Assembly: GCA_965226375.1 (NCBI GenBank)
Contig: CBDDCX010000008.1
Location: 896,001-960,000, forward strand
DNA from: Longimicrobiales bacterium
GTDB lineage: Bacteria > Gemmatimonadota > Gemmatimonadetes > Longimicrobiales > Gaopeijiaceae
Direction of reading: 5' to 3'
DNA: 64,000 bases
Positions 1,092-64,000 of the stretch are shown piece by piece. A program made the position numbers and the translations under genes. Numbering within the stretch: the first letter of the stretch is position 1; each line of letters opens with the position of its first letter. The notes below the pieces were generated by a model. The model was not told the origin of the DNA. It saw nothing but the letters and a program-made list of their open reading frames with translations, and ran no database searches.

Positions 1092-2450
1092 TTGTCTCGT
1101 ATTCTGCTCGTCGACGACGACGCTGACACCCGCTCGGTCTTCCGGACCAAGCTCGAGCATTCGGGCCACGAGCTGGAGGAAGCTGAGAGTGCAGAGGCTG
1201 CGCTCGGCAAGGTCAAGTCGTTCGATCCCGCGGTTGTCATCACCGACGTACGGATGGACGGGATGACGGGCTTGGAGCTCCTCAACAGGCTCCGGGAGTC
1301 CATGGCGAGCGTCGACGTCATCGTCATGACCGGCCACGACTCTATGAGCTCGGCCGTAGAGGCCATGAAGTCCGGCGCGTTCGACTATTTGGTAAAGCCC
1401 GTGGGCCTGAAGGAGCTCGAGTCGGTGGTAGAGCGCTGCTTGAGCGAGCAGGAGTTGATCCGCGCGTCGGCAGAGGATCCGGAACCCGAGATCGAGGAGG
1501 AGGACGAGGGGACCAGCACCGTGGTGGGTCGTGACCCACGGATGATCGATATCTACAAGATGATCGGTGTCCTGTCCCGAAACCGCACCACCGTGCTCGT
1601 GCGGGGTGAGACCGGCACGGGTAAGGAGATGGTCGCCCGCGCTATCCACGACCATTCGCTCCACGCGGCGGAGCCGTTCATCGCGGTGAACTGTACGGCC
1701 CTCACAGACACCCTGCTGGAGTCTGAGCTTTTCGGGCACGCCCGCGGTGCGTTCACCGGGGCGATCGCGAACAAGAAGGGGTACTTCGAGCTGGCGGGGC
1801 GGGGAACCATCTTCTTGGACGAGATCGGCGACACCTCGCCCGACTTCCAGTCGAAGCTTCTCCGGGTGCTTCAGGAGAGGCAGTTCTATCCCGTCGGAGG
1901 TGAACAGCCGAAGCGGACGGAGGCTCGGGTGGTCGCCGCGACTCACCAGCCCATGGAGGAACTGGTATCAGAAGGCGGGTTTCGGGAGGACCTCTACTTC
2001 CGGCTGCGCGTCGTCGAGCTCGAAGTGCCCAGCCTCAGAGCGCGAAAGGGCGACATCGCTCTTCTGGCCAACCATCTGCTCGGCAGAATCCGCCGCGAAA
2101 CGGGCAGTGACGTTCGACGGATCTCGGAAGCGGCGATGGCGGAGCTGCTAGCCCACGACTGGCCGGGAAATGTACGTGAGCTCGAGAACGCCCTCACGAG
2201 GGGGGCCATCGTCGCGCGTGGACCGGTGATTGCACCGGAGCATCTGGCCCTCGGGCTGTCGGGCGACGGTCGCCGGCCGAAGGCGCAGCCGGCGCCCGCC
2301 AGGGAGGGTGACATGACCCTGGACGGTGCTATCGAGCACCAAGTTCGCCGAGTGCTACAGAGCACGGGCGGAAACAAGACCGAGGCGGCGGCGCTACTCG
2401 GGATCTCTCGCTCACGCCTCGCTCGTTATGTGGAACGCTTCGACCTTTAG
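1092..2450 (+). CDS. NtrC-family sigma-54-dependent response regulator (REC-AAA+-HTH)
   Basis: ILLVDDD receiver, GETGTGKE Walker A, ESELFGH and GAFTGA, WPGNVRELEN, Fis-type HTH; TTG start at 1092 after AGAGGA. Confidence 0.93.
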   Translation: MSRILLVDDDADTRSVFRTKLEHSGHELEEAESAEAALGKVKSFDPAVVITDVRMDGMTGLELLNRLRESMASVDVIVMTGHDSMSSAVEAMKSGAFDYLVKPVGLKELESVVERCLSEQELIRASAEDPEPEIEEEDEGTSTVVGRDPRMIDIYKMIGVLSRNRTTVLVRGETGTGKEMVARAIHDHSLHAAEPFIAVNCTALTDTLLESELFGHARGAFTGAIANKKGYFELAGRGTIFLDEIGDTSPDFQSKLLRVLQERQFYPVGGEQPKRTEARVVAATHQPMEELVSEGGFREDLYFRLRVVELEVPSLRARKGDIALLANHLLGRIRRETGSDVRRISEAAMAELLAHDWPGNVRELENALTRGAIVARGPVIAPEHLALGLSGDGRRPKAQPAPAREGDMTLDGAIEHQVRRVLQSTGGNKTEAAALLGISRSRLARYVERFDL

Positions 2451-2508
2451 AAAACTCCGTACCCAGCGTCGGTTGACCCGGGGATCCGGTTAAAATAGGA
2501 TCTTGGCC

Positions 2509-2712
2509 ATGGCCAAGAAGAAAGATACCAAATCAGGCGCAGCACAAACGGCGTCGCTTCAGTTCTCGCGAATCAATCTCGCGTTCGGAGTCGGGGCGTT
2601 GCTCACCATTACGCTCGGGTACTGGCTGCTCGCTCAGGGATCCATCACGATGGCGCCGATCCTTCTGGTGGTGGGCTACGTGTTCCTCGTACCGCTGGCC
2701 ATCATCCTGTAA
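2509..2712 (+). CDS. Small two-TM membrane protein (DUF3098-like)
   Basis: Basic N-terminus, two hydrophobic helices, 'SITMAPILLVVGY' segment. Confidence 0.65.
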   Translation: MAKKKDTKSGAAQTASLQFSRINLAFGVGALLTITLGYWLLAQGSITMAPILLVVGYVFLVPLAIIL

Positions 2713-2789
2713 AGGTCCGACCCCTCGGGGTCGAGCGCTCCCCCGCGTCGGCCTCGATGATCCCGACGTCGTGACTGGCAGGTACACCT

Positions 2790-4145
2790 TCAAGCCGGTT
2801 TCGTGAGCACCCGTGCCTGCGTGAACTGCCGGTGTCCATCCTTGGACTTGTGGAAGCCGTAGCCGCTCTGCCGTGCCCCGACCCACGGCGTCCCTGCCGC
2901 ACCGCTGGCCGCCCTGTTGATCCCGATCATGCCTGCGGTGAGTTGGCGCGCTACCCCGGCCGTGCGCTCGTCGTCCTCACCGAACACGACCGCGCCCAAC
3001 CCAAAGGGGGTGGCGTTGGCCCTCTCGATCGCGTCTTCCTCTGAGGCCACACGGGTCACGCACGCAACCGGACCGAACGTCTCGTCCTTGGCAATCGCCA
3101 TCTCCTCTGTCACACCCGTGAGAATGGTGGGCGTGACAAAGTTGTCGTGATGGCCGGAGCCGCCCGACAGGACGGTGGCCCCCTCACCGACCGCTCGATC
3201 GAGCTGTTCGAGTACATGATCCTTCTGCTGGGCGTTGACCATCGGACCCACCTGGACACCCTCGTCCAAGCCGTCGCCCTGCTTCATGGCCTCACCCGCT
3301 ACCACCAGGAGCGACTCGAAGCGATCCGCCACCGACTCCGGTACGAATATCCTCTCTGTGCTCACACAGACCTGACCGGCGTTCCGAAAACTGTTCCACG
3401 CCGCGAACTTGGCTGCCTTCTCGAGATCGGCGCTCTCCAGAATCACCAGGGGATCCTTGCCGCCGAGCTCCAGGATCACGCGTTTCAGCTCGCCGCTGGC
3501 TGCCCTGAGAATGTGTTTCCCCGTCTCTCGGGAACCCGTGAAAGCGATGAGGTCGACGTCACTCTCGACGAGCCGTTTGCCCTGATCGTCCGCTCCGTGG
3601 ACCACCTGTAGAACGTCGGGCGGGAGTGCCGAGTTCAGCACGTCAGCGTACGCCTGACCGCACAGGGGCGTCTCCTCCGACGGCTTGAGGATCACCGTGT
3701 TCCCGGCGGCCAACGCCGGAAGCACCATCCAATGAGGCATCGACATCGGGAAGTTCCAGGGCGTGATAGCTGCACACACGCCGAGGGCGTCGTGATATAC
3801 AGTGGAGTGGTTCCGACCGTCATCGAAGATCTCTGGAGCGAGAGCCTCACCGATTTCCTCCAATTCCTCCGTCACGAACGCCAAGGACTTGGCCTCTCCC
3901 ACCCCCTCGGCCAGCGGTTTCCCCATCTCCTCCGTGATGAGCCGGCCTAGGTCGTCAGCCCGCTCGGCGAACGTCTCAGAAGCTTTCGATAGGAGTCGGG
4001 CCCGCTCCTCGTGGCCCATCGCCTCCCAGGCCGGCTGGGCTGACCGTGCACGGTCCACGATGGCCGGGATATCGTCGGGAGATGTGACGAGGACTTCGCC
4101 GACCAGTGTACCGTCGGCCGGGTTGAAAGACTTCAGAGTGTCCAT
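2790..4145 (-). CDS. Aldehyde dehydrogenase family protein
   Basis: ITPWNFP, KPSE, FTGS, LELGGKDP, GQVC, ETFGP motifs; start placed at MDTLKSFNPA. Confidence 0.92.
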   Translation of the reverse strand: MDTLKSFNPADGTLVGEVLVTSPDDIPAIVDRARSAQPAWEAMGHEERARLLSKASETFAERADDLGRLITEEMGKPLAEGVGEAKSLAFVTEELEEIGEALAPEIFDDGRNHSTVYHDALGVCAAITPWNFPMSMPHWMVLPALAAGNTVILKPSEETPLCGQAYADVLNSALPPDVLQVVHGADDQGKRLVESDVDLIAFTGSRETGKHILRAASGELKRVILELGGKDPLVILESADLEKAAKFAAWNSFRNAGQVCVSTERIFVPESVADRFESLLVVAGEAMKQGDGLDEGVQVGPMVNAQQKDHVLEQLDRAVGEGATVLSGGSGHHDNFVTPTILTGVTEEMAIAKDETFGPVACVTRVASEEDAIERANATPFGLGAVVFGEDDERTAGVARQLTAGMIGINRAASGAAGTPWVGARQSGYGFHKSKDGHRQFTQARVLTKPA

Positions 4146-4563
4146 AACCGTTCTCGATTGGTGTTCTCTGGATCGTTTCCGAACCGGAAGATGGGCTCGG
4201 GAACGGCTGGACGCTACGCGTACCGCGATGGTGTCCGCGTCGCCTGCCTCCCCCGGGACGGCGGGTGTAGGGTCTGGACACGGCCGCCGACCTTCCAGGG
4301 CAAAGCCAGTGCTGCGTATGGAGGCCTGCTGGCTAATGGAGGCACCATGGCGATAAGCGCTCCGGGCAGGACGCCACGTGGTGGCTGGTCCGCCAAGCAC
4401 GACCAGCAGGCGCGGAACGCGGGGTACGCTTGCTGGACCGGGTGGATAGCCGCCATCCAGAAGGACGAAGACCGGAAGATCTGCGGGGCCAGAGCGCACA
4501 GCACGCAGTCGCTCGGTGGTTACGATTTCGGTGCTATTGGTGTTGATAGGGTCGTGACCGACG

Positions 4564-5511
4564 CTACTGCACGGTGAAGCCGTACGTGGCGCGCAGTGCG
4601 CCGTTGGTATAGACCTCGATCGCCCAGCTTCCGGGCGTCCCCGCGGTCAGTGAGCGGTTCCAGAACCAGTACGAGTGCCGCCACGTCTGCTGGAAGGTCG
4701 TGCCCACATCGTGAACGACGACGTCGCCGTCGTCGAGGATCAAGACTCGGATCACATCGCCTGTCGTCCCTCCCGCCATCGATAAGCCCACGCCGATCGT
4801 ACCGCCGGCGGCCACCGTCGTCGCGTTCGGCGGCGGGTCCTTGAGCTCGTCGACACCGCCGATGGCCCCCTCCTTCACGTTCAAGTCCATGAAGTCGAGC
4901 GGGGCGTCGTAGGTCGGTGGGGCGGCGAACAGCTCCTCGAGGAAAGGGTCGATCACGGTGCCACCCTCATCGCGCAGCTCGAGGTGCAGGTGGGGCGCCG
5001 TCGAGCATCCCGAGCTTCCCACCACGCCGAGCGCATCTCCCGCGCTGACCTGCTGACCGATGGTGACGACGATCGAGCTCTGCTTGAGGTGACCATAGGT
5101 CATCGTGGACCCGTCGTCGTGGCGGACGTCGACGAAGTTCGCCGTCCCTACGCAGGAGGTGTTGCGATCGGGCTGGCCATCACGGAGAGAAGCCACCTCA
5201 CCCGCATGGGCCGCGACGATCTGATGGCCACTGTCCATCCAACGGAAGTTCGGCACATCGATGTCGACGCCGGGGCGACCATTGTAGCTCTTCCCCCCGC
5301 CACGGTAGTCAAGCACGCCGGCACCGGTGTCGAGGTCGACGTAGTTGTTGATGACCCAGTCTGCCCCGTCCTCGCCGGCGACCGGCCACTGGAGCACGAG
5401 CGGATCCGAGTCATTCGGGCCCGTGCCGTCGGAGCTGCAGGCGGAAAGACCGAGAACGACGAATAGCCCCAGCGCTCGGGCGGGCGCGTGGTTCTGTGAG
5501 GGCATCGGCAT
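4564..5511 (-). CDS. M23-family peptidase-like lipoprotein (first Zn ligand His appears as Arg)
   Basis: Lipobox LSAC; YGHL and GSSGCSTAPHLHLE motifs; HxxxD motif reads RPGVD. Confidence 0.8.
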   Translation of the reverse strand: MPMPSQNHAPARALGLFVVLGLSACSSDGTGPNDSDPLVLQWPVAGEDGADWVINNYVDLDTGAGVLDYRGGGKSYNGRPGVDIDVPNFRWMDSGHQIVAAHAGEVASLRDGQPDRNTSCVGTANFVDVRHDDGSTMTYGHLKQSSIVVTIGQQVSAGDALGVVGSSGCSTAPHLHLELRDEGGTVIDPFLEELFAAPPTYDAPLDFMDLNVKEGAIGGVDELKDPPPNATTVAAGGTIGVGLSMAGGTTGDVIRVLILDDGDVVVHDVGTTFQQTWRHSYWFWNRSLTAGTPGSWAIEVYTNGALRATYGFTVQ

Positions 5512-5641
5512 CGTGAAGCGGTGTGGTCGGTGGAAGAGTAGCTCGGGGGGTGCCGAGCGATCCACGACCCAAGTGCGCTCCGGCGGGCTCAATACATTAT
5601 GACGGGCCGTTATCTACGAATCCCGAGCCGCGGGAGTCCCC

Positions 5642-5830
5642 ATGATCGATCGACGCCGCTTCATCGGAACCACGGCCCTCGGCAGCGCGGGCCTCGCCCT
5701 CGGTCCGGCGGCTTGTGCACCCGCTGGACGGGACGCCTGACTACAGAATCGAGGCCATGAGGCTGTCCACTGGAGAACGGAAGGTGCTGACGCCGGGGGT
5801 CAAGTCGTACGTGACACCCATGGGACATCT
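5642..5830 (+). pseudogene. Fragment mosaic: Tat signal peptide remnant joined to a beta-propeller-like fragment
   Basis: MIDRRRFIGTTALGSAGLALGPAAC stops at 5740; overlapping frame reads DYRIEAMRLSTGERKVLTPG...GHL. Confidence 0.5.
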
Positions 5831-6018
5831 GTGCTGGGGGGTGGGCTTTGGTGGGCGTGGTGCAGGACATCTACACCCAGGCGGACGACGAGACTACCTT
5901 GCAGGTTGTGTTGGACGCCGGGCAGCTGCGGGATGCACAGTGAATACCAACCCCAAGGGGTTGGGGGCGTCAGAGGCCACAGTGCTTTCGTGGCTTAGCT
6001 GCACGGCGAAAGACCCAC

Positions 6019-6093
6019 GGGCGGTTAGCTCAGTTGGTTCAGAGCGCCTGGTTTACACCCAGGAGGTCACTGGTTCGAATCCAGTACCGCCCA
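6019..6093 (+). tRNA. tRNA-Val (anticodon TAC), CCA not encoded
   Basis: Acceptor GGGCGGT/ACCGCCC, D arm TAGCTCAG, anticodon stem CCTGG/CCAGG with TAC at 6054-6056, T loop GGTTCGAATCC. Confidence 0.97.
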
Positions 6094-6461
6094 TTGCCGG
6101 AAGGTCAGGAATCAAGCGACTTCTGGGGGAGACAGCCTCCTCCCGCTCTCCACCTCCTTTCCCCATTGCATCCCGTTGCATCCCGCCGGAGGATTGTCGG
6201 GGAGAGGTCCGTTTCGGAAGCGGGCAACCCTGGTGGCAGGCCGCTGGCCAAGCCGTCCGGGAACCGACCCCAGTAGCAACCCCACCGCATGACAAACCCT
6301 CGTAGGCCTCGGGTCTTCGTGTTCCGGTTGCCCGCCTAATAGCCAGGCGGTCTGTTCAGGTTAGGCTGGGGAATGTTGCTGGGATGAGCCCAGGCTTGCG
6401 CCTCGTGGTGCCGGGAAGCCATTTGGTTTCACGGACGGTTGGCTCGGAGTCGTCACCTGGG

Positions 6462-7788
6462 GGTCAAGTCCCGAGTTGTGTGTAAAAGTGAGAGGAAGCT
6501 CCTCGATGCTTCGGTTAGGCTGCCTTGGCGACCTCCTTGGGTTCGAGAAGCGTGAGATCGAGGTAGCGGCGTTCGCTCCAGACCGCAGTAGTCTTCAGAG
6601 CAACCGCGGTGATGAGGCGGAGCGCACTGGCTCGGTCGGGGAAGGCGCCGGCGCTCCGGATCCGACGCTTGATCTCGGTGTGCAGGCGCTCGAGGCTGTT
6701 CGTGGTGCGTAGCCTGGCCCAGTGGGGCTCGGGGAACGCGTAGAACTGGGTGGCGGCCGTGAAGCCCCGCTCGAGCACCTTCATTGCCTCGGGGAGCTCC
6801 TCTTGCCAGCGCGTCGTGATCTCGGCCAGGCGCTTCTTCGCCTCAGCGAGCCCGGGGGCCCGGAAGACGGCGGCAACCTCGCGCGCCACACGCTTGCGCA
6901 GGCGATGCGGGACCTTGGCCAGCACGTTGCGTTGCAGGTGCACGGTGCAGCGCTGACGGCGCACCTCAGGCAGGAAGCGGCGCACCGCAGCTGCCAGGCC
7001 CGCGTGCTTGTCGGCGATCACCAGTTCGACGCCGCTGAGACCTCGCTCCAGGAGCTGCTCGAGGAGCTCCGACCAACTGTCCTCTGACTCCTCAGGGCCT
7101 AGCGTGATGGCCAGGAGCCGGCGGTGACCGTCCGGATCCACCGCGTAGGCCACGAGCGCGCTCACGTTCTCGACCTTCCTGGCCCAGCGCGCATCGAGGA
7201 ACGTCGCGTCCAGATACAGATAGGGGTGAGGCCCCTCGATGGGTGCGCTCCGCAGCGCTTCTACAGCCCCATCGAGCCGCTTCGCGACCCGGCTTACCGT
7301 CGAGCGTCCCACGCGCTCACCCAGCAGTGCTTCAGTCACGTCGCCCATCTTGCGCTGCGACACACCGCTCACGTAGGCCTCCACCATCATCTCGTCCACT
7401 TCTTCACTCCTGCGCCGGTAGCGGCCCATCACGTCGGCGGGCGAGCCGCCTTCCCGGCTGCGCGGCACCATCACGTCGATCTGACCCAAGCTCGTGAGCA
7501 GGCGCCTGAGGTACGTGCCGTTCCTGTGGTCCTTCCGGCTGCCGACCCGCTCGAAACGACGCGCTCCGACCATCGCTTTCAACTCCTCCTCCAGCACCAT
7601 CTCGAGCGTAACACGAATCGCGCCCTGAAACAACGACTTCAAATCCTGCCGTAACTCTTCTTGCGTGGCCCGCTCAACTTCAACCATCTTTTCCATGAGG
7701 AAGCTCCTTTCCGGTTCCGGACCTGCTGGCGCAGGCCCGGACTCCCCGGGTTCGTGTCATGATGAACATTCACAAGGAGCTTCCTCTC
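6462..7788 (-). mobile_element. IS256-family insertion sequence (upstream end incomplete)
   Basis: End GGTCAAGTCCCGAGTTGTGTGTAAAAGTGAGAGG resembles IS256 termini; only 13 bp of inverted match at 7776-7788; no target duplication seen. Confidence 0.82.
6515..7696 (-). CDS. IS256-family (Mutator-type) transposase
   Basis: RNGTYLR, YLYLDA, IADKHAGL, QRCTVHLQRN, RTTNSLERLHTEIKRR. Confidence 0.95.
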   Translation of the reverse strand: MEKMVEVERATQEELRQDLKSLFQGAIRVTLEMVLEEELKAMVGARRFERVGSRKDHRNGTYLRRLLTSLGQIDVMVPRSREGGSPADVMGRYRRRSEEVDEMMVEAYVSGVSQRKMGDVTEALLGERVGRSTVSRVAKRLDGAVEALRSAPIEGPHPYLYLDATFLDARWARKVENVSALVAYAVDPDGHRRLLAITLGPEESEDSWSELLEQLLERGLSGVELVIADKHAGLAAAVRRFLPEVRRQRCTVHLQRNVLAKVPHRLRKRVAREVAAVFRAPGLAEAKKRLAEITTRWQEELPEAMKVLERGFTAATQFYAFPEPHWARLRTTNSLERLHTEIKRRIRSAGAFPDRASALRLITAVALKTTAVWSERRYLDLTLLEPKEVAKAA

Positions 7789-7816
7789 TTTTTCCCGGGC
7801 TGTCCACCCTCCCCGG

Positions 7817-7869
7817 ACAGCGCACCTGATGGTTAACACAAGTGTGCCAGCTGATGGTTAACAGATTGG
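7817..7869 (-). mobile_element. Solo right end of the IS481-family element
   Basis: 53-bp exact reverse complement of 12891-12943. Confidence 0.88.
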
Positions 7870-7930
7870 CTCGCGTTCTTCGCTTGCGCTCAGCATCTTT
7901 GGCGCGCAGCAGAATCGCAATCCGGTAGAT
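7869..7930 (+). repeat. attC-like site, 3' half
   Basis: 54/62 identical to 17044-17105; ends GGTAGAT (one change from GTTRRRY) just before a gene. Confidence 0.65.
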
Positions 7931-7947
7931 GGCCCAATGGACTTCAG

Positions 7948-8346
7948 ATGACAGCCAAACCGTCGATTCGCACCTTGGTTCTAATCAGCGCGTCGCTGTA
8001 TGCCGCATTCTGCTCCCTCCCCTTCCTCCATCCCGCCCTAAGGAGGGTCCTCGGTGAGCCGGCTGACGTGGCGCAGATGTCAGCATTTTTCTGGCCGTAT
8101 CCGCTCTTCCTTAGTCTGTTGAAAGGCCTGGAGGGAAGTACAGCTACCTGGCTATTGGTAGATTTACTGGGTCTCGGAGCGGTCGTGCTTGGCTCGGCGT
8201 ATGCGTTCAGAAAACTCCGCGCCCTCGACGTCAAGCAGTGGTTCTTATACGCTGTCGCTCCGCTGATTTGGTATCTCCCGCTGCTGGGGGTTCAATTGGT
8301 CGCGTTTGGCATAGCCTTTATTCTGGGCATGGATATCGGCGAGTAG
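7948..8346 (+). CDS. Hypothetical membrane protein (cassette-like)
   Basis: 132 aa, three hydrophobic segments, visibly lower GC than the backbone, starts 17 bp after the attC-like end. Confidence 0.7.
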   Translation: MTAKPSIRTLVLISASLYAAFCSLPFLHPALRRVLGEPADVAQMSAFFWPYPLFLSLLKGLEGSTATWLLVDLLGLGAVVLGSAYAFRKLRALDVKQWFLYAVAPLIWYLPLLGVQLVAFGIAFILGMDIGE

Positions 8347-8614
8347 GTGGGTGAGCAGGGCTCCGAGGTGGTGGCCCGCGTGCAGGAGCTGGAGGAACGC
8401 CTAAGGGTGGCTTACGGTGATTTCTAAACAGCTGCTGTCGCGGTGAGCAAGCTATCACCGCCCGTCTAAGCGACGAGAGCCTTCCGGCCTACCCAGGATA
8501 CCGAATAAACCCCGAAGAAGCTCAGAACGTGAATACAAGCGTCCAACGGTCTTCTGCTTGCGCCTACCGGACCGCTCTCGGATGTTGACCACGGCCTGAT
8601 CCCGGAGTGCGCCC

Positions 8615-9688
8615 GTGTCCGATTCCGTCGCTCGTCTGAACGCTGTCCTTGGTCGCGTCGCCTCTCTCATCTTTCCGGCTACCGTGCTGAGCCTGGCCCT
8701 CGCAAGCTGCTCAGGCTCGCCATCCGGCTCCACGGTGCTGACGGCCGACATGCCGCTGCATCTGGAGCAACACCTAGACGCTGCCACCATCGTCGGCTCC
8801 GAAGTGCCGGTGGACGCTCCGACCGTTATGGAGTGGCACTTCGACGAGCCGCAGGAAGACTGGTAGCCGGCGGTGCCGTGGAACCCTACGAACGAGCCAG
8901 TCGAGGTCACGCAGCTCGAGGACGCGGTTCGTGTCACGCTGACGGACGGTACGAGGAATCCGAACGGCTTGCCGAGGGGCGGCATCGTTTGAGACGTGCC
9001 CGATTGGGCCTACGAGGATCTGGCGCACCTCGTGGTGCGTGCTCGCACGTCCGATGATGTCAGGAACATCGTGATCAACTTCAACCGACGCGAAGGGAGC
9101 GGGACGGATACGGACTTCCCCATGCCATTCGCTCACCGAGGCGAAACGGTCCCTGTTGTAAGCGACGGTACGGTGCAGACCTACCGGCTGCGGCTGGATT
9201 TCTTTGGGTGGCGCCCACGACCTGAGGGATCGATCCGGCAGCTCGCCCTGTGGTTCGATCCCAGCGATCTGGCCAGCATCGACATCCTTTCCATTACACT
9301 GACCACGAAGGTGGCCAACTACGCCGAGACGGGCGCCGCCTCGCGCACGGAAATCCGCAACCGGATTCATCGGCAGGCTCTGTATACCCACACGCCGGGC
9401 AGCGTAGAGTATCGGGTGAAGGTCCCGGAAGGTGGTCGGCTGTTCTACCGCAATGGAGCCGACGAGTTGGTGGCTGCACAGGTCACTACAGGTCCAACGT
9501 TCACGGTGGGCCAGCAAGAGGTGCTGTTTTCCCTCGCCGGGTACTATTCCGGCAGGGGTCATCCTCAATACGACGTGACGCCCGACGATCAGCGATTCGT
9601 GATGCTGAGGTTCGGGGATGAGGAGAACGCCGAACTCGTCTTGGTCCTGAACTTCTTCGAGGAGTTGAAGGAGCGGGTGCCGAATTGA
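8615..9688 (+). pseudogene. Chimeric pseudogene: N-terminus of a sulfatase-like lipoprotein fused in frame to a Ser/Thr-kinase-type beta-propeller tail
   Basis: Paralog of the 10660 gene with in-frame TAG (8864) and TGA (8990); switches near 9440 to FYRNG...YDVTPDDQRFVM...LNFFEELKERVPN. Confidence 0.8.
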
Positions 9689-9734
9689 ACCGTCAGGTCC
9701 CTTGGCTGCGCGTCTTCGTGGAAGGCGTGGTGAT
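9653..9734 (+). repeat. 82-bp exact direct repeat, copy 1 (connector spanning a stop/start overlap)
   Basis: Identical to 15017-15098. Confidence 0.92.
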
Positions 9735-10401
9735 CGTCGGCTCAATCCTGCTGGCGTTCGGACTTCAGGCGTGGTGGGACGGCGTTCAGGCGCGTGCTAC
9801 GGAGCGGAGCTACCTGCTCTCGCTCGGCGAAGAGTTCAGGCAGGCGCGTCCCCAACCAATGCGCGAACGGTCCCTTCGCTACGTCGCAGCCCTCATTGAC
9901 CAAACGCAAGGCGAACGGCTTGATGAGCCCGACTCCTTGTACCGTTGGACCACAGGGCTGTCGCAGCAGATCGAGTTCGATCCACCGCGCGCTGTGTTTG
10001 ACGATTTGGTGTCAGCGGGAGCGACGCAACTGATACGATCAGACAGCCTCCGACGGGCATTCGCTCGCTACTCGTCCCGGTTGGCTGCGTTGCGGTACGC
10101 TGACGCCCAGGCCTGGGCAACATGGGAGCAGAGAATCCAGCCATTCCTCGAGGGTCGAGTCCCACGATTGGAGCGTCTCCGAAACGGCGGGTTCGGGGCT
10201 GCCCCAGACCTTGGCGTCCCATTCGGGCCCTCGCGCCATGCGGCGCAGTGGGAGGAGGTGCTGCGCAGCGCTGGCTTCGAGGACATGCTCGTCGAAAGAT
10301 GGATGCGCCTTCGGCTCGCTAAGCGTCGCTATGACGACATAGTCGAACTCTCCGAGGAAACCCTCCGCTTGATCGCCAAGGAATTGGAGGACCTTGGATA
10401 G
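9685..10401 (+). CDS. DUF6090-like membrane-anchored helical protein
   Basis: N-terminal EGVVIVGSILLAFG TM anchor; DLVSAGATQLIRSDSLR motif; TTG overlaps the upstream TGA. Confidence 0.75.
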   Translation: MNRQVPWLRVFVEGVVIVGSILLAFGLQAWWDGVQARATERSYLLSLGEEFRQARPQPMRERSLRYVAALIDQTQGERLDEPDSLYRWTTGLSQQIEFDPPRAVFDDLVSAGATQLIRSDSLRRAFARYSSRLAALRYADAQAWATWEQRIQPFLEGRVPRLERLRNGGFGAAPDLGVPFGPSRHAAQWEEVLRSAGFEDMLVERWMRLRLAKRRYDDIVELSEETLRLIAKELEDLG

Positions 10402-11160
10402 CCACACGAGCGTGCACCTTGAGATCAAGTTTGAAGTGCAACACGCAAGGGGTTCATGGTCACAGGTCGCGGACCCGATAACGCCCGTCTAAGCGACGAG
10501 AGCCTCCACCCTACCCCTGATACCGAATAAACCCCGAAGACGCTCAGAACGCGAATACAGGCCCCTAGACGGCTTCTTGCGAGGTCAGCGAGAAGTTGAG
10601 CTTGCGCTTCCCGACCTGCGGATAGGATGTTGAGCGGGTCTGATTGTGGAGGTGTGCCTGTGTCCGATCTCGTCGCTCGTCTGAACGCTGTCCTTGGTCG
10701 CGCCGCCTCTCGAATCTTCCCGGTTACGGTGTTGAGCCTGGCCCTCGTGAGCTGCTCACGCTCGCCATCCGGCTCCACGGTGCTGACGGTCGACATGCCG
10801 TTGCATCTGGAGCAGCACCTAGACGCTGCCACCATCGTGGGCTCCGAAGTACCGGAGGACGTTCCGACCGTTATGGAGTGGCACTTCGACGAGCCCCAAG
10901 AAGATTGGAAGCCGGTGGTCCCGTGGAACCCAACGCACGATCCGGTCGAGATCACCCAGCTCGACGACGCGCTGCGAGTCACGTTTACGGACGGTACGAG
11001 GAATCAGTACGGCGGGCTGGATGGCGGCCTGGTTCTGGAGGTGCCCGATTGGAACTACGAGGATCTGGCTCATCTCGTGGTGCGTGCTCGCACCGCCGAT
11101 GATGTCGGGGGCTTCAGGCTCGCCTTCAATCGACGTGAAGGGCCTGGGAGGGAGACACGC

Positions 11161-12946
11161 GGTACAGCCTACCCTGATCCTTTACACAATGGCCTACACT
11201 GATGGTTGACAGGTTCCTATCAACCAGGGTTCTGCAACAAGGAGAGCCCGATGGACTGGAACCGGTCGACCATGTACGAGCAAAGAGTACGCTTCATCCT
11301 CGAAGTGCAACAACGGACGTTCAGTTTCGCCGAGTCCTGTAGGCGCTACGGTATTAGCAGGACCGCGGGATACACCTGGTGGAATCGCTTCCGCGCAGAG
11401 GGATTCGAGGGACTTCAAGAGCGATCGCGCCGACCCCATCACTGCCCGCACGCCGTGGAGGAGCCGATCGTCGAACACGTCGTCGACCTGCGTCAGCGCT
11501 ACGGTATGGGGATCACGCAAGATCCGTAAACTCACGAGCTGAGAAGTTTGGCTCGGCCCCAGTTCGCAGGACGATCGATCGCATCTTCGAGCGTCACGAC
11601 CAGGGAAAAGTGACATCTACAGCCGCTACGTCGTGGGATGGATGGTGGCGGCGGGAGACGGCCTCCAGCAGAGCTGCCTGAAGCATGGCGTCCAGCCCCG
11701 GGTCCTGGCACTCGGATCGGGGAGCTCCAATGACGAGCCAATGCAGCTCAACTTCTCGCTGACCTCGGCGTGACCCGCTCGTTGAGCCGGCCTCAGGTGT
11801 CGGATGACAACCCGTTTTGAGTTCAAAACCTTGAAGTACCATCCCTCGTTTCCCGGACGGTCGGGGATCAGGGCCAAGCCAAGACGTTCTGTCGATCGTT
11901 CTTCCGCTGGAGCACCGCCATGGCGGCATCTCGCTAACCCCCGAGCAGGTCCACTTCGGGAACGCCGATCAGGTCATTGCCGGCAGGAAATCCGTGCTCC
12001 GCGAAGCATGGGCCGCTCATCCCGAACGCTTCGTCGCCGAAGCCCAAACCGCTCCCGGAGGCCGTCTTCATCAATCCTCCCATCCCTTCCCTCACCACAC
12101 AGGACATTGCTCTCTAATTAATCCCGTAGAGTGTCCCATTGTCGTTGACAATGCGGTCTGGACCGTCGACTTCAAAGGGCAGTTCAAGATGCGCAACGGT
12201 CGCTACTGCTACCCCCTCACGATCCAGGACGGCTTCAGCCGGTTCCTGCTCGAGTGCACAGGGCTGTATTCCACGTCGATCGAGCTCGCCAAGCCTGTGT
12301 TCATCAGGACTTTCCGCGAGTTCGGTCTGCCCGCCGTCATCCGCTCCGACAATGGTACGCCCTTCGCTTCCATCGGCCTCGCTCGCCTCACACGCCTGAG
12401 TGCCTGGTGGATCCGCCTCGGTATCCGTCCTGAGACCATCGAGCCGGGTAAGCCGCAGCAGAACGGCCGACACGAACGCATGCACAGGACCCTCAAGCGT
12501 GAAGCCACTCGCCCGCCCAAGGCCAACCTCAGTGCCCAGCAGCGCCACTTCAACGACTTCCGCCACACATTCAATCACATCCGCCCCCACGAGGCGCTCG
12601 ACGACGCTACTCCCCATTCCGTCTACCGATCGGCTCTTAGAGCCTACCCCGACGTCCTTCCGCCCATCGAGTACCCTGAGCACTTCGAGGTCCGTAAGGT
12701 CTCTACAAACGGAGCCATCCGCTGGCACTCGCGTTGGATCAACATCAGTTCGGCTCTGGGCAACGAGTTCATCGGGCTCGAACCCATCGGCCCCGCTCTG
12801 TGGCAGGTCTACTTCGGTCCCACTACCCTCGGGTGGTTTGACGAAGAACTCTTCGTCATTTTCGACACCCACGGTAACACAGGACGTAACCCAATCTGTT
12901 AACCATCAGCTGGCACACTTGTGTTAACCATCAGGTGCGCTGTTCA
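11161..12946 (+). mobile_element. IS481-family element, disrupted
   Basis: Imperfect inverted ends, each with two TGAT..TT.ACA units; flanking CGC/CACGC direct repeat; HTH N-terminus from ATG 11251 (frameshifts near 11506 and 11537); rve core WTVDFKG, SDNGTPF, NGRHERMHRTLK, RPHEAL to 12902. Confidence 0.9.
11611..12150 (+). mobile_element. Degraded IS3-family integrase fragment nested in IS481
   Basis: Pieces DIYSRYVVGWMVA, SDRGAPM, LLADLGVTRSLSRPQVSDDNPF, FKTLKYHPSFPGR, AAHPERFV across several frameshifts; end-like GTGTCCCATTGTCGTTGACA. Confidence 0.8.
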
Positions 12947-15016
12947 CGCTTCCGCCAGTACTTCGAGTACGATGGCGAGCCGGTCACTGTTGTAAGTGAC
13001 GGTACGGTGCAGACCTACCGGGCGCGGCTGGATTACTTTAGGGCTTCTCCACCGGAGGACCGATTCGGCAGATTGCCCTGTGGTTCAACCCCCGCGATCT
13101 GGCCAGCATCGACATCCTTTCCATCACACTGGTCCCGAAGGTGGCCAACTATGCCGACGCGGGTGCGGCCTCGCGCACGGAAATCCGCAACCGGGTCTAT
13201 CGGCAGGCTGTGTATACGCACACGCCGGGGCGCGTGGAGTATCGGGTAAAGATCCCTGAAGGTGGCCGTCTCGACTTCGCGATGGGTGTCTTGCGTGAGG
13301 ATGTGCCCGTGACCTTTCGGGTCACGGCGACCGCCGACGGTGCCGAAGGCAGTGAACCGACCACGCTGTTTGAGGAGCACTACGCGGCAAAGGAGACCTG
13401 GGGCCAGCGTTCGGTGGATCTGACCGACCTTGCCGGCCAGACGGTGACGCTCGGCCTCGAGGCCGATTCGGAAGCCGAAGGGCGGGTCGCTTTGTGGGGA
13501 GCGCCTACCGTGACGGGCGGCGGCCAGTCGTCTCTTCCCAACGTCGTCTTCTACGTCTTCGACGGCGGCGCAGCGGACTACATGAGCGTGTACGGCTACA
13601 ACCGTCGCACGACCCCGGCCCTGGAGCGGCTGGCCCAGGAGGGCGTCGTGTTCGAGCGAGCGTATAGCAATTCCAGTTGGACACTGCCCTCGCCCGCCTC
13701 GTTCATGACTTCCCTACAGACAGTGTGACGGGGGGCTTGCTCGGCACCAACGTGAACCCGATACCGGCCGAGGCCGTGACCATGGCCGAGCACGTACACC
13801 GGGCCGGCTACCAGACGGCGGTGTTCACGGGGAACCCCAACGCCGGGACTCTGAGCGATCTCCAGCGTGGGGTCGATCTGTTCCGGGAGGACTGGGAGGA
13901 CTTCTCGTACTTCGGTGGGAATAATCACAGGGAGTCCTCGACGTACCTGCACGAGGGATTCTGGAGCTGGCGGGAGGACTATCCCAGCCAGCCGTTTTGG
14001 GCGCACTTCCAGACGACTGACACGCATGAGGATTTCCCCGCCGTGGCTCCGTTTTCGGGGCTTTTTGTGAGTCCGGATCAGCTGGCGACGTGGCGCGTGT
14101 GGCAAGACTCCCTGGAGTCACTGGGCAACCACGGCGTCTACTCCGGGGCATGGGAGAAGTCTGGGCTGGACCGCGTGAAGTTCTTTGCCATGCACCAGGG
14201 CCTCTACGACGAAACCATGGCCCACAACGACTACCAGCTCGGGCGGCTGGTCGAACGTCTCAAGGCCTCAGGCGAATGGGAAAACACGTTGCTGATCATC
14301 GGGGGCGATCACAGCATTGAAGCGGCCATGGACGACATGGGCGTCGCGATCCAAGACTCGCTTCCTCCCCAATGGAGCCGGCCGATGTTCCGGCCCACGA
14401 TCTCCAGGGTGCCTCTCATGTTTGTGTGGCCGGGTCACATCGAGGGAGGACAGCGGATAGCCCCTCCCGTATCGATGATCGACGTACTCCCCACCCTGCT
14501 CGACCTACTGGGGCTCCCCCCTGCCGAGATCGCACAGGGACAGTCGCTGGCTCCTCTGATGATGGGTCGAGAGGGATGGGAGCTGCGCCCGGTAATCTTC
14601 GACGAGTTCTACTCAGATGCCCAGAACGGAGAAGTGTCGGGCGTTATTGAGGTGGTGGATGGCCGCTGGGAGTGCGACGCTGGAGAGTGTCATGGCCGCT
14701 GGGGTGCGATGGAGATCAATGGGGGGAACCCCGGAGAGAACGAGGGGGAGTGGAAGCGCCCCTCCCCGCTGCTGCTCTACGACCTGTGGAACGATCCGAT
14801 GGCGCTGTGGAGCCTGCACGAGGAACGGCCGGATCTGGTTGAGAAATACACTGCCTTTCTGGAACATCAGTTTGAGGCTCACATGGCCCTGTCTCAGTAC
14901 TTCACACGATCCGGCGATGTTGCGTTGACGCCGGAGCAACTACAGACGCTCCGCACGCTGGGCTACATCCGATGAAGAGGACCGTGAGTGCTGGCGGAGT
15001 CTGCCTCGTCCAGAAT

Positions 15017-15098
15017 TTCTTCGAGGAGTTGAAGGAGCGGGTGCCGAATTGAACCGTCAGGTCCCTTGGCTGCGCGTCTTCGTGGAAGGCGTGGTGAT
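15017..15098 (+). repeat. 82-bp exact direct repeat, copy 2
   Basis: Identical to 9653-9734. Confidence 0.92.
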
Positions 15099-15765
15099 TG
15101 TTGGGTCGATTCTGATGGCGTTCGGGATTGAGGCTTGGTGGGACGGTCAACAGCTTCGGCGGGATGAAGCTCAGGCGCTCGGGGACCTGCATACCGAGTT
15201 TGCAGCCAACCTCGACGGGATTGAGCGTATCACGCGGAGGCACCGAACTCTGATCTCAGCGGGGACCCAGCTCCTTGCTATGACTAGGGACCGTGATGCG
15301 ACCCCACCACGCCCTCAATTGGATACTCTTCTCTTCGCGTCCTTCGTGGACTACACGACCTACGACCCACAATCCGCTGCGCTGAGCGACCTCATCTCCT
15401 CGGGGCGACTAGGCCTGATCAGCGACGACACGCTCCGTATGGCCCTGGCCGACTGGCCAGCCGCGGTCGAGGACTTCATCGAGGAGGAGCGGCTGGTGGT
15501 CCGGCTTGTTGAGTCCTCTCTGCTACCCTACGTAACGGCGCGTGCAGCCACTGTTGACCTTTACCGTGCCTCCCGCGAAGCGTACGGATCATTCGCGCCG
15601 GGTCAACGCGATTCTGACCTCGCCGCGCTACTGGGTGCTCCGGAGTTTGAGAGTCATGTAGCCAATCGAGTTGCTCATGAGAGCCGCGCCCTCTACGAGC
15701 TTGAGATCATCCTCCGGCCACAAGTGGATATGATCCTGGAGCGGTTGGTGAGGGCCACTCGCTAA
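15049..15765 (+). CDS. DUF6090-like membrane-anchored helical protein
   Basis: Same N-terminus as the 9685 gene; DLISSGRLGLISDDTLR motif; stop lies within CGCTAAC. Confidence 0.78.
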   Translation: MNRQVPWLRVFVEGVVIVGSILMAFGIEAWWDGQQLRRDEAQALGDLHTEFAANLDGIERITRRHRTLISAGTQLLAMTRDRDATPPRPQLDTLLFASFVDYTTYDPQSAALSDLISSGRLGLISDDTLRMALADWPAAVEDFIEEERLVVRLVESSLLPYVTARAATVDLYRASREAYGSFAPGQRDSDLAALLGAPEFESHVANRVAHESRALYELEIILRPQVDMILERLVRATR

Positions 15766-15771
15766 CGTAGG

Positions 15772-15891
15772 TGAACAGCGCACCTGATGGTTGACACAAT
15801 GGTGCCAGCTGATGGTTAACAGATTGGGTTACGTCCTGTGTTACCGTGGGTGTCGAAAATGACGAAGAGTTCTTCGTCAAACCACCCGAGG
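15772..15891 (-). mobile_element. Solo right-end fragment of the IS481-family element
   Basis: Reverse complement of 12827-12946 with 3 differences. Confidence 0.9.
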
Positions 15892-16092
15892 CCGTGATCG
15901 ATTTCTTGATGCGGATGGGTCCCGCCACGAGCTGACCCGTGTTGCTCACGATGGCGATCACTGAATACGTTGCGTGTGCATCGATTCCTGCGACAAACAT
16001 GGCTGGCCTCCTTGGGTTGGGTGCCGCAGGTCCTTGAACAAGCCCAGCGTAACGCCCCGCTCGAGTGAGGTCAGCCCTTCGCCTTATAAGAT
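15892..16092 (-). mobile_element. IS110-family left end and transposase N-terminal fragment
   Basis: AAGGAGG RBS, ATG at 16000, MFVAGIDAHATYSVIAIVSNTGQLV (GID start of the RuvC-like domain); end reads ATCTTATAAGG. Confidence 0.72.
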
Positions 16093-16113
16093 CAGAATCG
16101 CAATTCGTTCGAG
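16093..16113 (+). repeat. attC-like site, 3' terminal piece
   Basis: CAGAATCGCAATTCGTTCGAG, 19/21 identical to 17085-17105. Confidence 0.6.
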
Positions 16114-16129
16114 CGCACTGGAGCTGAGG

Positions 16130-16741
16130 TTGTCAGAAGCGAGTTCGGGGATTCCGTTCAGAAGGGCCATCTTCGAGGGTGCGGTCATCCTCGTCCTCAT
16201 ACTCCTGATCGGAGTGTCATGGGGGTGCTCGTCTGATGCCACGGGACCACCGGACGCGCCGGTCGGCGGCGGCGAGGAAACGCCACTGCATGGTCCAGAG
16301 AACCCTGCCCTAGTCGGCGACACGCTAACCCTCTCGAATATCACCGGACTGCGCGGCGGTAACCGGGCTACCATCCGTCTCACGTACCTTGGTCATGTCG
16401 CGGGCGCCGCGGCGCTGGACACGGTGATGGCGGCCAACCAATTCAACGAAGAGCCACCGGCGGGCTTCGAGTATCTACTGGGCCGCTTTTGGGTGGAAAT
16501 CGTCCAGTTGGCCGACCCGGGTATCGCGTTCCGTATGTGGGACGGACACTGGGAATCCGTGTCGGGGGCAGGGGTGATCCATGAACAGCCACTATTTGGA
16601 GTCTGCTGTCTTGAGGAAGTGCTTGATGGGGAGGGGTTCAGGGGCAGGTCATGGGAGGGGTGGGTGCCGTTCTTTGTCTTGCCATCTGACGAAGGAGTGC
16701 TAGGCACCTACCAGCGACTGGTCTGGTTCAAACTGCGTTGA
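16130..16741 (+). CDS. Hypothetical lipoprotein-like protein (DUF4352-like Ig fold possible)
   Basis: TTG start after GGAG; hydrophobic segment then WGC; 'NQFNEEPPAGFEYL' and 'EGWVPF' segments. Confidence 0.6.
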   Translation: MSEASSGIPFRRAIFEGAVILVLILLIGVSWGCSSDATGPPDAPVGGGEETPLHGPENPALVGDTLTLSNITGLRGGNRATIRLTYLGHVAGAAALDTVMAANQFNEEPPAGFEYLLGRFWVEIVQLADPGIAFRMWDGHWESVSGAGVIHEQPLFGVCCLEEVLDGEGFRGRSWEGWVPFFVLPSDEGVLGTYQRLVWFKLR

Positions 16742-16996
16742 AGGCGAGGGGACTACATGACCGCCCTTCTCATTGAGCAAAGCGAGGTTCTTCTCACAGA
16801 TCTAGACAGTCTCCTCGTGGATCTTGATAGGGCCATGGCACGATAGGCCATGTGCGATCGGCGCTCCCAGGGGCTCGTGTCTCTGATTGAGCGTGTCATC
16901 TTTGAAGACGCCTTTCGTTCAGCCCGTTATCGTCAACAGTTCGACATGGCGACGGACTTGATCACCCTTCTCCAGGGGGAAACTGCGCACGGTTCA

Positions 16997-17105
16997 GCCT
17001 AACACCATCACGAAGGACCGGGTCAAGTAGTCCTGAGCATCCCGCTCGCGCGTTTCGCTTGCGGTCACCATCTTAGGCGCGCAGCAGAATCGCAATCCGT
17101 TAGAG
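16997..17105 (+). repeat. attC-like site (R'' GCCTAAC to R' GTTAGAG), left arm apparently partly deleted
   Basis: RYYYAAC overlaps the TAA of the upstream ORF; GTTAG end 23 bp before the next ATG; 109 bp long. Confidence 0.68.
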
Positions 17106-17128
17106 AGCCGCTGCCTGATGGAAGTGCC

Positions 17129-17632
17129 ATGAGCCAAACGCCCGAGAGTCGTCGGTGGAGAAAGCTGGTCGGAGAAGGGCTCCTCATCGTCTTCAGCATT
17201 CTCCTGGCATTTGGGATCGAGGCGGGGTGGAGCCAACGAGGCGAACGCCAGGCCGAGGTCGAGGCTCTGCAAGGGCTAAGTGACGACTTCGTCGAGAGCC
17301 TGGAACGACTCACATCGGTCGGGTCAGACCACGTCGAGGTGCGAGACGCTTCGGTCCGGCTGCTCGCGATGACGGGGCCTGACGCCGACCAGACCGTGTC
17401 CGACCTGGTCATGGACACCTTGGTTATGGCGTTGATCGCCTACCCTAAGGTGTTTCCCGTTACCGCCACGTATGACGCTCTGATCGCTTCCGGCCGAATC
17501 CAACTCCTCGAGAGTGCAGCACTGCGTCGAGAGTTGGCGCGCTGGGCGACGGCGGTCGTAGACCTCCGGGAGGAGGAGCGAGATGCGTTCAGATAAATGG
17601 ACGAACGTCTGCTGCCCTATCTGTTCGATCAG
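17129..17632 (+). pseudogene. DUF6090-like protein, premature TAA and truncated
   Basis: EGLLIVFSILLAFG anchor, ALIASGRIQLLESAALR; TAA at 17594 followed in frame by MDERLLPYL (compare ESSLLPYV in the paralog). Confidence 0.75.
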
Positions 17633-30450: not shown

Positions 30451-30506
30451 TTGAAGCGATGACAGTTGAAGCGATGACATTGAAGCGATGACGTTGAAGC
30501 GATGAC
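30451..30506 (+). repeat. Tandem repeat TTGAAGCGATGAC x4 (14-15 bp period)
   Basis: Exact copies at 30451, 30466, 30480, 30494. Confidence 0.95.
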
Positions 30507-30569
30507 ATTTGAACGGGGAGCGCCCGCCCTTCGGGTTGGCGCATGGCGAGAACGGGTCAAGGAGGAAGA

Positions 30570-55049: not shown

Positions 55050-55147
55050 GAATAGCGGCCCCTGGGGCCGCTGCAGGAATAGCGGGGGCCGCTGCAGGAA
55101 TAGCGGCCCTTCGGGCCGCTGCATGAAGAGCGGCTTCTGGCCGCAAC
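55050..55147. repeat. Tandem REP-like palindromic units x4
   Basis: GAATAGCGGCCC-n-GGGCCGCTGCAG and variants at 55050, 55077, 55098, 55125. Confidence 0.85.
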
Positions 55148-62930: not shown

Positions 62931-63027
62931 GGGGGGCGCGGTGTCGCGCCGTCCCGGGGCGGCTGCTCCCCGAGGGCCCGGCCCCGCCTCCTGCAGATGC
63001 CCCGGGACGGCGCGACACCACACCCCC
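62931..63027 (-). repeat. Long hairpin element, copy A
   Basis: 21-bp perfect stem 62940-62960/62999-63019; core shared with 63209-63302 in inverted orientation. Confidence 0.85.
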
Positions 63028-63208
63028 GTACCAAGGTCGGGCTGTTCGAAGCGTTGGCATGCCGCTCGGAGACCGGGGTGGTCGGATGCCGCAGCCCGCG
63101 TCTGGGTGTTCGGGCGTTTGGCGTGGTAACACCATGAGCATCGCGAAAGCGGCAACCCGGCCGAGTATTCCCGCGCCAACGCCTAGGTCACCCACCCATG
63201 TCGTAGCA

Positions 63209-63302
63209 GGTGGCGCGTGAGGGTCGCTTCTCGGGGCATCTGCAGGCGGAAGGGCCGCGGGTGGGGAGCAGCCGCCCCGAGAAGCGACCCTCACGTGCCA
63301 CC
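63209..63302 (+). repeat. Long hairpin element, copy B
   Basis: 29-bp stem 63209-63237/63274-63302 with one G-T pair. Confidence 0.85.
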
Positions 63303-63311
63303 AACTAGCCC

Positions 63312-64000
63312 ATGAACAAACTCGTCCTTGATATGAAGGACAAGAGGCCCGTTTGGGCGCGACCCGACTGGTTCGTCCCGCATCTGCGTGAGGCCATGCC
63401 GGACGACTGGGAGATCGTGGTCATCGAGGAGGACGCGGACGGGTCTGGTGACGGGTCCAGTCGGGCCAGTGCGGGGGTGCTCGAGGCGGTGCGAGACGCG
63501 AGGGTCTATCTGGCGTTCGGTATTGCGGCCGAGGTGTTGACGGAGGGATGGGACCTCGAGTGGGTCCATACGGGTGCGGCGGGGGTGGGTAAGTCGTTGA
63601 CCCCTGAGATGCTTGCCAGCCCGGTCCGCTTCACGAACTCCGCGGGGATCCATGCGATTCCGATGGCGGAGACGGTGTTGGGAATGATCCTGTACTTTGC
63701 TCGCGGTCTCGACTTCGCGGTCGCCGGCATGGCCGAGGGAAGGTGGAGCACCGACTCGTACTACGAGGCGGCCTCGCCCATTCGGGAGCTGTCGGAGAGC
63801 GTGGTCGGGATCATCGGGGTCGGGGGGATCGGGCGGGAGATCGCGCTGCGGGCTTGTGCGTTCGGGGCGAGGGTCATCGGGCTACGGCGGAGCCCGGTGC
63901 AGGGCGGTGAGCGCCCGTCGTGGGCGGATGAAACGCGAGGTGGCGACATCCGGGTGGTGTCCGGTGAGGTCGGCTTCCAGGAGTTGCTGTCGGAGAGTGA
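63312..64000 (+). CDS. D-2-hydroxyacid dehydrogenase (runs off window)
   Basis: WVHTGAAGV, TNSAGIHAIPMAE, GIIGVGGIG read directly from ATG 63312. Confidence 0.9.
   Translation, partial: MNKLVLDMKDKRPVWARPDWFVPHLREAMPDDWEIVVIEEDADGSGDGSSRASAGVLEAVRDARVYLAFGIAAEVLTEGWDLEWVHTGAAGVGKSLTPEMLASPVRFTNSAGIHAIPMAETVLGMILYFARGLDFAVAGMAEGRWSTDSYYEAASPIRELSESVVGIIGVGGIGREIALRACAFGARVIGLRRSPVQGGERPSWADETRGGDIRVVSGEVGFQELLSES

Follow-up and report, generated by a model that had tools for sequence, protein, structure and literature searches.

The question raised by this 64,000-nucleotide (nt) stretch of a Longimicrobiales bacterium genome (the stretch is called the window below, and its source, the genome under study, G000) is why two genes with strongly diverged bodies begin with one identical junction, and whether this junction is a handle through which downstream bodies are swapped. 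The junction, here named the connector, occurs on the plus strand at 9653..9734 and 15017..15098, the two copies being identical over exactly 82 bp, as stated by the initial annotation. It comprises 11 codons that end an upstream frame (a kinase gene tail), a TGA stop overlapping a TTG start (TTGA), and the first 16 codons, or head, of a gene for a 238-amino-acid (aa) protein. The identical run includes the stop/start overlap and the synonymous sites (15/15 degenerate codons agree in codons 1-16), whereas outside it codons for the same residue agree in only 4 of 12 cases in codons 17-33 and at a rate of ~0.3 in the bodies, which places the 82-bp identity far beyond codon bias. The analyses reported here indicate that the connector is the conserved junction of a multicopy kinase-to-DUF6090-like gene pair and that it probably serves RecA-type homologous exchange as a handle within cassette arrays that are decaying.

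The exact run is not the isolated island, with flanks diverging at once, that had been described: similarity of 91% continues past it over 139 bases (9644-9782 vs 15008-15146). Both downstream open reading frames (ORFs) do encode 238-aa proteins, and these, although strongly diverged, are distant paralogs rather than unrelated, being 32% identical across residues 1-205 (E 7e-26). In three to four independent public runs, single contigs start within the connector and cover each body with 0-4 differences (9714-10442 in four runs, ~15072-15798 in three). None of these contigs can span the whole connector repeat, but they link it to each body, which makes an assembly chimera, an alternative named by the initial annotation, unlikely. 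The head contains a 27-nt core (codons 9-17, 9709..9735, plus strand), whose synonymous sites are conserved across genera and of which 9709-9729 are predicted to form a 9-bp hairpin. In four metagenomes, the summed contig depth over the core (window 9699-9740) was 1,500-12,800 vs 4-11 in the adjoining body; this depth, which is not copy number, implies that the core is common to abundant relatives.

The connector joins the 3' end of a Ser/Thr kinase/PD40 gene to the opening 16 codons of a gene for a DUF6090-like membrane protein. Its 5' half belongs to a multicopy family with Pkinase and PD40 domains in the intact members and encodes their C-terminus, and it is to this family that the ending FFEELKERVPN*, earlier taken for that of a sulfatase, belongs. 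Its 3' half is the start of a family of 230-240-aa proteins (201 homologs, 111 of them aligned) with a constant N-terminal stretch of ~31 residues and bodies mostly ~30% identical to that of gene 2. The window genes carrying the head are gene 1 (238 aa, 9685..10401, plus strand), whose closest bodies lack the connector head, and gene 2 (238 aa, 15049..15765, plus strand), predicted to be all-helical (predicted local distance difference test score, pLDDT, 94), its hydrophobic N-terminal helix being followed by a body that resembles a four-helix bundle. The hydrophobic head suggests that the gene 2 product is a membrane anchor with a helical bundle outside. The DUF6090 profile (PF19578) gives gene 2 13.6 bits, under the Pfam gathering cut-off of 23.5, and matches at E<=0.1 in 19 of the 111 homologs (best 1.4e-4); the Atlas neighbour cluster is 15% DUF6090. 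The family is likely a distant relative of DUF6090, with which it shares a length of ~230-240 aa, the N-terminal hydrophobic helix, the helical body and weak profile matches, while differing in its position below the curated cut-off and in its own distinct head sequence. Comparison of the gene 2 model with VIA-align gave designed helical bundles as best matches (Z 12.6, root-mean-square deviation 2.4, 134 aligned), which indicate no function, and a Foldseek search of PDB returned nothing at E<=0.001. The NCBIfam profile search gave no match for the family, and neither profile nor structure searches assigned gene 2 to a toxin family or a clear fold. No literature on DUF6090 or on the kinase-partner junction was found, most subscription journals lying outside the coverage of the search.

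A genome-wide search for connector copies showed more than a two-copy repeat with fixed partners and gave no support to a special two-block locus: G000 has seven near-full copies, joined to varied partners, plus several stubs. Comparison of synonymous divergence inside and outside the connector, proposed earlier as a check, revealed homogenised heads. Among the seven G000 genes, degenerate codons for the same residue agree in 297 of 309 cases (96%) in codons 1-16 and in 135 of 240 (56%) in codons 17-33, despite 82% aa identity in the latter, and in 31-40% in the bodies. A GTC-CCT head allele is present in 7/7 G000 genes and in 7/7 heads seen in G002, a congeneric species, and in 0/141 matches listed from other genomes. 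The bodies behind this genus-specific head are only ~20-30% identical and are therefore older than the genus; the shared genus allele therefore points to concerted evolution.

The role of the connector as a swap handle is upheld insofar as body exchange has taken place at the junction or close behind it; a dedicated site-specific mechanism is not. Besides the genus allele, the body of gene 1 is 61% identical to that of L239 (G002) and 48% to that of L233 (genome G013), a grouping with 99/99 support, and these two genes have other heads, 58% identical in DNA, and no kinase upstream. A single clade of head-bearing bodies was rejected by the approximately unbiased test (p-AU 4.7e-58; 15 of 26 rows, long or gappy rows excluded, unrooted tree). 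One graft or loss is firm, and more such events are likely. At C7:230708 of G000, the sulfatase gene is 80.5% identical at the nt level to that of the window block carrying gene 2 (block 2), and the connector matches at 81/82 positions, with a body only 21% identical, i.e. the same sulfatase stands before another body. Finally, downstream junctions of single origin are paired with two to four head alleles and several tail alleles, the pattern expected from crossovers in the core.

Related DNA also occurs outside G000. Of 151 family genomes, 39 match a head-plus-tail query (best five candidates per genome scored), and a 37-base pattern, which demands an intact core, was found at 28 genome loci and in at least 121 metagenome stretches, with 145 distinct matches listed after five duplicates were dropped. 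Of the 28 genome loci, 27 carry a Gemmatimonadota or Longimicrobiales label, which suggests that the host belongs there as well. G002 shares 86/86 identical bases with the window.

Body swapping as the usual outcome was not borne out, since 125 of the 145 listed matches were filed, a few of them wrongly, as breaking at codons 17-30. Stub breaks fall at codons 17-19 in 89 matches, at codons 20-30 in 36 and later in seven; of the rest, eight are too short and five are filed as long, the filing being imperfect in that at least five further bodies are misfiled. Grouped together, the breaks give 58 clusters, and 31 of these lie at codons 17-19. On the upstream side, roughly classed for 114 matches, a long kinase tail is present in 36, a short remnant in 51 and neither in 27. 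In a partial control, 93 head-covering BLAST rows counted by hand, 49 end at about codons 15-21, three earlier and 41 later, with a ranking that favours longer matches. Loose contig ends lie at 9738-9746 in all four runs examined. Several stubs have frameshifts or stops, and genome G011, a single contig, keeps at least nine heads, with no body detected there by the gene 2 query.

Most frequent among the stubs is a 23-codon ORF that ends in GKLEN-stop or similar (L053, L056, L071, L162 and ~35 more loci; C7:233148 in G000), which probably represents a single old deletion that has since spread, or else a small peptide; the repeat following it is also found behind a full-length gene in L135. At L052, L087, L120, L169 and L033 the head, usually with its hydrophobic helix, is fused in frame to unrelated proteins of 185-500 residues, whose signal peptides it apparently replaces. 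The kinase 5' head occurs ~40 times in G000, in many cases as a stub of 10-30 codons that is joined to an unrelated ORF and preceded by a shared leader, and is present in the window at 8615-8656 and 10660-10701; together with this leader it is possibly a second handle or a promoter trap. Two near-identical frames of ~494 codons (C7:649533 and C7:666596 in G000) each start with a kinase-head stub.

The connector genes lie in the setting of integron-type arrays. The window contains one full-length hybrid attC-type site (16997-17105) and one right half (7869-7925), and the G002 array at the same locus, judged by shared flanking genes, has three 100-bp attC-type sites, two of which fold end to end; intact sites there follow genes of the DUF6090-like family. 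This G002 array (L260, C3:1519000-1537000), which differs from that of the window and is longer, also carries tandem kinases, at least three genes of this family and, judged by eye, a likely toxin-antitoxin pair. The integron integrase IntI is above the cut-off in G000, G002 and G011. The window island has no neighbouring integrase, the only G000 match to TIGR02249 over the cut-off being on contig C4, and no attC of the window's type was found beside that integrase gene (L001:1300-2490). The island resembles a decayed CALIN (attC-site cluster that has no integron-integrase) as defined in the accessible text of PMC4889954. It shares with such arrays the attC-type sites, an integrase elsewhere in the genome, an insertion sequence (IS) inside the array and gene content that varies at one locus between two species, and differs in that its sites are decayed or hybrid and that the connector lies inside cassettes, not at their borders. 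The connector itself was considered as an attC site and rejected: RYYYAAC/GTTRRRY boxes are absent by inspection, and only two small hairpins are predicted (z +0.3).

Acting as a homology handle, the connector would allow recombination from one head to another, or within the transmembrane-coding sequence that directly follows, which would homogenise the heads and place a new body behind a kinase or a sulfatase. Where the exchange is one-sided, or where an ordinary deletion occurs, the body would be lost and the remaining stub would end just past the core. A constraint on the 27-nt core at the nucleotide level, possibly that of an mRNA hairpin, would keep the handle from drifting. No RNA data were found among the sequencing runs containing a substantial share of the window. 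The exchange would depend on RecA, and in favour of general homologous exchange the handle, 55-100 nt long, exceeds the minimum of 25-35 bp for RecA exchange given in the available part of PMC6382021. The one-sided joining would correspond to homology-facilitated illegitimate recombination, treated in the same portion of that source, in which a single homologous anchor combined with a non-homologous join would yield head-plus-unrelated junctions. ComEC and DprA are present in G000. The translational coupling that was expected to survive swapping is retained in full-length genes because the overlap lies within the shared stretch; newly joined downstream genes are not coupled above control frames (of 73 clusters, 13 are coupled in the real frame, against 12 and 10 in the controls), in a test that is weak because an internal GTGA contaminates the +1 control.

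Several points weigh against exchange through the connector or limit its extent. Most bodies branch without support in the tree and its starred branches force two changes, so that in an unrooted and otherwise weak tree just one graft or loss is firmly established; its direction could also be the reverse, L239 and L233 having lost the head. Exchange between strains at one locus was not caught in the contigs, which cannot span the repeat. The 86-bp match between species is not decisive by itself, because an exact run of 83 bp occurs in another G000-G002 alignment too. Breaks before the core are invisible in the 145-match set because the pattern needs an intact core, and in kinase-anchored sets some remnants do end before the core is complete. 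Many kinase-head stubs have no sharp endpoint, which fits general deletion decay, most connector copies likewise look like decay products, which limits the weight of the system, and ComEC and DprA are common, being present in 10-11 of 14 control genomes.

The clustering of breaks could also be read as the mark of a cis-acting element, either an mRNA hairpin that shields the 3' end of the kinase transcript or tunes re-initiation, or a protein-binding palindrome, which would be kept by selection and to the edge of which deletion bias would erode the neighbours, with recombination being incidental. This account, which we consider unlikely, draws on the synonymous plateau that spans genera in codons 9-17 (where codon usage predicts a homozygosity of 0.22-0.74, against the 0.78-1.0 found), on a rarer GAA codon kept in 29 of 33 sequences, on the predicted 9-bp stem of codons 9-15, paired in 95.6% of cells, on breaks accumulating 7-12 nt behind this stem, and on the heads retained in G011. 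The sequences behind the plateau, however, came partly from DNA searches, which favour conserved heads; the folding energy of the stem is not above shuffles (z -0.39); and its covariation amounts to one double change, in a gene without connector, with 12-21 of 500 shuffles reaching the scores and columns that are protein-constrained. The stubs with frameshifts or stops also count against it. A cis-function of the core may help to keep the handle, because the synonymous plateau coincides with the predicted stem, but alone it cannot explain the genus-specific allele on ancient paralogs, the grouping of the mosaic gene 1 body or the mosaic at C7:230708. Very improbable, and largely refuted, are a recent plain duplication, conservation of the protein alone and an artefact of assembly. 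The kinase C-terminus and the head are both conserved at the protein level, and the island is crowded with IS elements and pseudogenes; yet codons 17-33 combine 82% protein conservation with the low synonymous agreement given above, against 96% in codons 1-16, the bodies are saturated, independent runs connect the core to each body, and a second species carries the same 86 bases.

A site-specific hotspot, at which the genome's integron integrase, another recombinase or a retroelement captures genes behind kinases, appears improbable. The presence of IntI in the three genomes, the intact attC-type sites behind family genes in the G002 array and the clustering of junctions just past the hairpin would suit it, whereas the junctions spread over ~2-12 nt instead of falling on one base, and the connector has neither the attC boxes nor an attC-like fold. 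Among individual enzymes, cleavage by HUH/RAYT (REP-associated tyrosine transposase) proteins was rejected, as no Y1/HUH transposase (PF01797) was found in G000, which is 90% complete. Group II intron targeting was rejected too: of the seven copies, the six examined lie right behind terminator-like hairpins, the position usual for class IIC, and none lies at the connector, while the part from intron reverse transcriptase to 3' end had no match among the loci compared. These seven copies (G000 C6:336967, C8:98101, 975749, 1776129, 1814373, 1939566 and 2242451) are identical over the 1169 bases compared and look recently active. A Chi-like site was also discarded, no core word (7-8-mer) near the break ranking near the top genome-wide.

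The preferred reading, homologous exchange through the connector, has relatives among known systems. CdiA-CT and Rhs are C-terminal exchange systems akin to tpsC, and connector genes likewise combine a conserved anchor with a variable part of discordant ancestry; truncated copies here retain the head and lose the body. In the tpsA/tpsC exchange of Neisseria meningitidis, as described in the part of PMC3848433 available, homologous exchange runs through conserved sequence that lies upstream of a hypervariable domain, with crossovers falling within short shared stretches across the homology region rather than at one base, and with outside donor DNA possible. In contrast to what that text describes, the handle here straddles the stop and start of two genes, nearly the whole downstream gene is replaced, neither toxin-immunity pairs nor silent orphan cassettes were seen, and copies are spread over many islands, mostly as stubs. 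The pilE/pilS gene conversion covered in the same text shares a constant N-terminal hydrophobic segment, a variable C-terminal part and homology-driven exchange; it differs in its single expression locus and promoterless silent array, neither of which is seen here, where bodies are complete, 20-30% identical and without a pilin fold. VARTIG of Thermococcales, as far as the accessible portion of PMC8416519 goes, is likewise a module detected computationally, in which a variable part is recombined and the downstream genes vary, but concerns an archaeal Ig-domain protein with a variable C-terminal domain, whereas a bacterial kinase-partner junction with synonymous-site homogenisation is found here. 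The connector system is thus comparable to tpsC- or pilin-type exchange and to VARTIG and a member of neither, because its handle spans two genes, the toxin or silent-cassette layout was not seen and body loss dominates.

Toxin and pilin anchors lie within one gene, whereas the present anchor spans two, is homogenised genus-wide and sits inside attC-type arrays. Connector exchange would give an integrase-free route for changing cassette contents and bears on the origin of multi-gene cassettes. A further pointer is to a host phylum, widespread and mostly uncultured, with a large and so far unstudied family of variable helical proteins that are anchored in the membrane and in many cases coupled to Ser/Thr kinases. 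A broader proposal seems doubtful: that a Gemmatimonadota family keeps a hairpin-bearing exchange hotspot under nucleotide-level selection, as an integrase-independent capture and shuffling platform in integron-type arrays, which would pair membrane Ser/Thr kinases with interchangeable four-helix-bundle partners and build multi-gene cassettes.

The variable island of the window has its left edge at a tRNA-Val gene (6019..6093, plus strand), tRNA being all that an Rfam search of the window matched. It is followed by an IS256/Mutator-family transposase gene (6515..7696, minus strand; PF00872, E 4e-104) and an IS481-like end fragment (7817..7925, plus strand) joined to the attC-like right half-site mentioned above. 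Block 1, like all features up to 15765 on the plus strand, opens with a repeated 5' leader (8459..8614), the shared upstream region of the initial annotation, which elsewhere in the genome precedes kinase genes. Then comes the 5' part of a sulfatase-lipoprotein pseudogene (8615..9441) with in-frame stops at 8864 and 8990 and no sulfatase domain, fused in frame near 9441 to the ~80 last codons of a Ser/Thr kinase-PD40 gene (9442..9688). This fusion is probably recent, because contigs from three other runs have a different sequence upstream of 9439. Block 2 consists of a second leader copy (10478..10659; 81% identical to the first), a sulfatase-lipoprotein gene (10660..14975; PF00884) that is interrupted by an IS481-family element (11161..12946, with a nested multicopy IS fragment at 11612-12150), frameshifted near 13728 and ended by its own stop at 14975, and a 26-codon mini-ORF with the kinase tail (14972..15052), which shares ATGA with the sulfatase stop and TTGA with the following start and so links that stop to gene 2. 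In both sulfatase genes the first ~14 codons resemble the kinase N-terminus. Downstream lie another IS481-like end fragment (15771..15891, minus strand), the 109-bp attC-like site (16997..17105, plus strand; RYYYAAC ... GTTAGAG), whose right arm is like the intact G002 sites and whose left arm is divergent, and a third member of the DUF6090-like family (17129..17596, plus strand), which lacks the connector head and is shortened by a stop codon. Short tandem and inverted repeats are present away from the connector, at window positions 30451-30513, 55050-55139 and 62932-63314.

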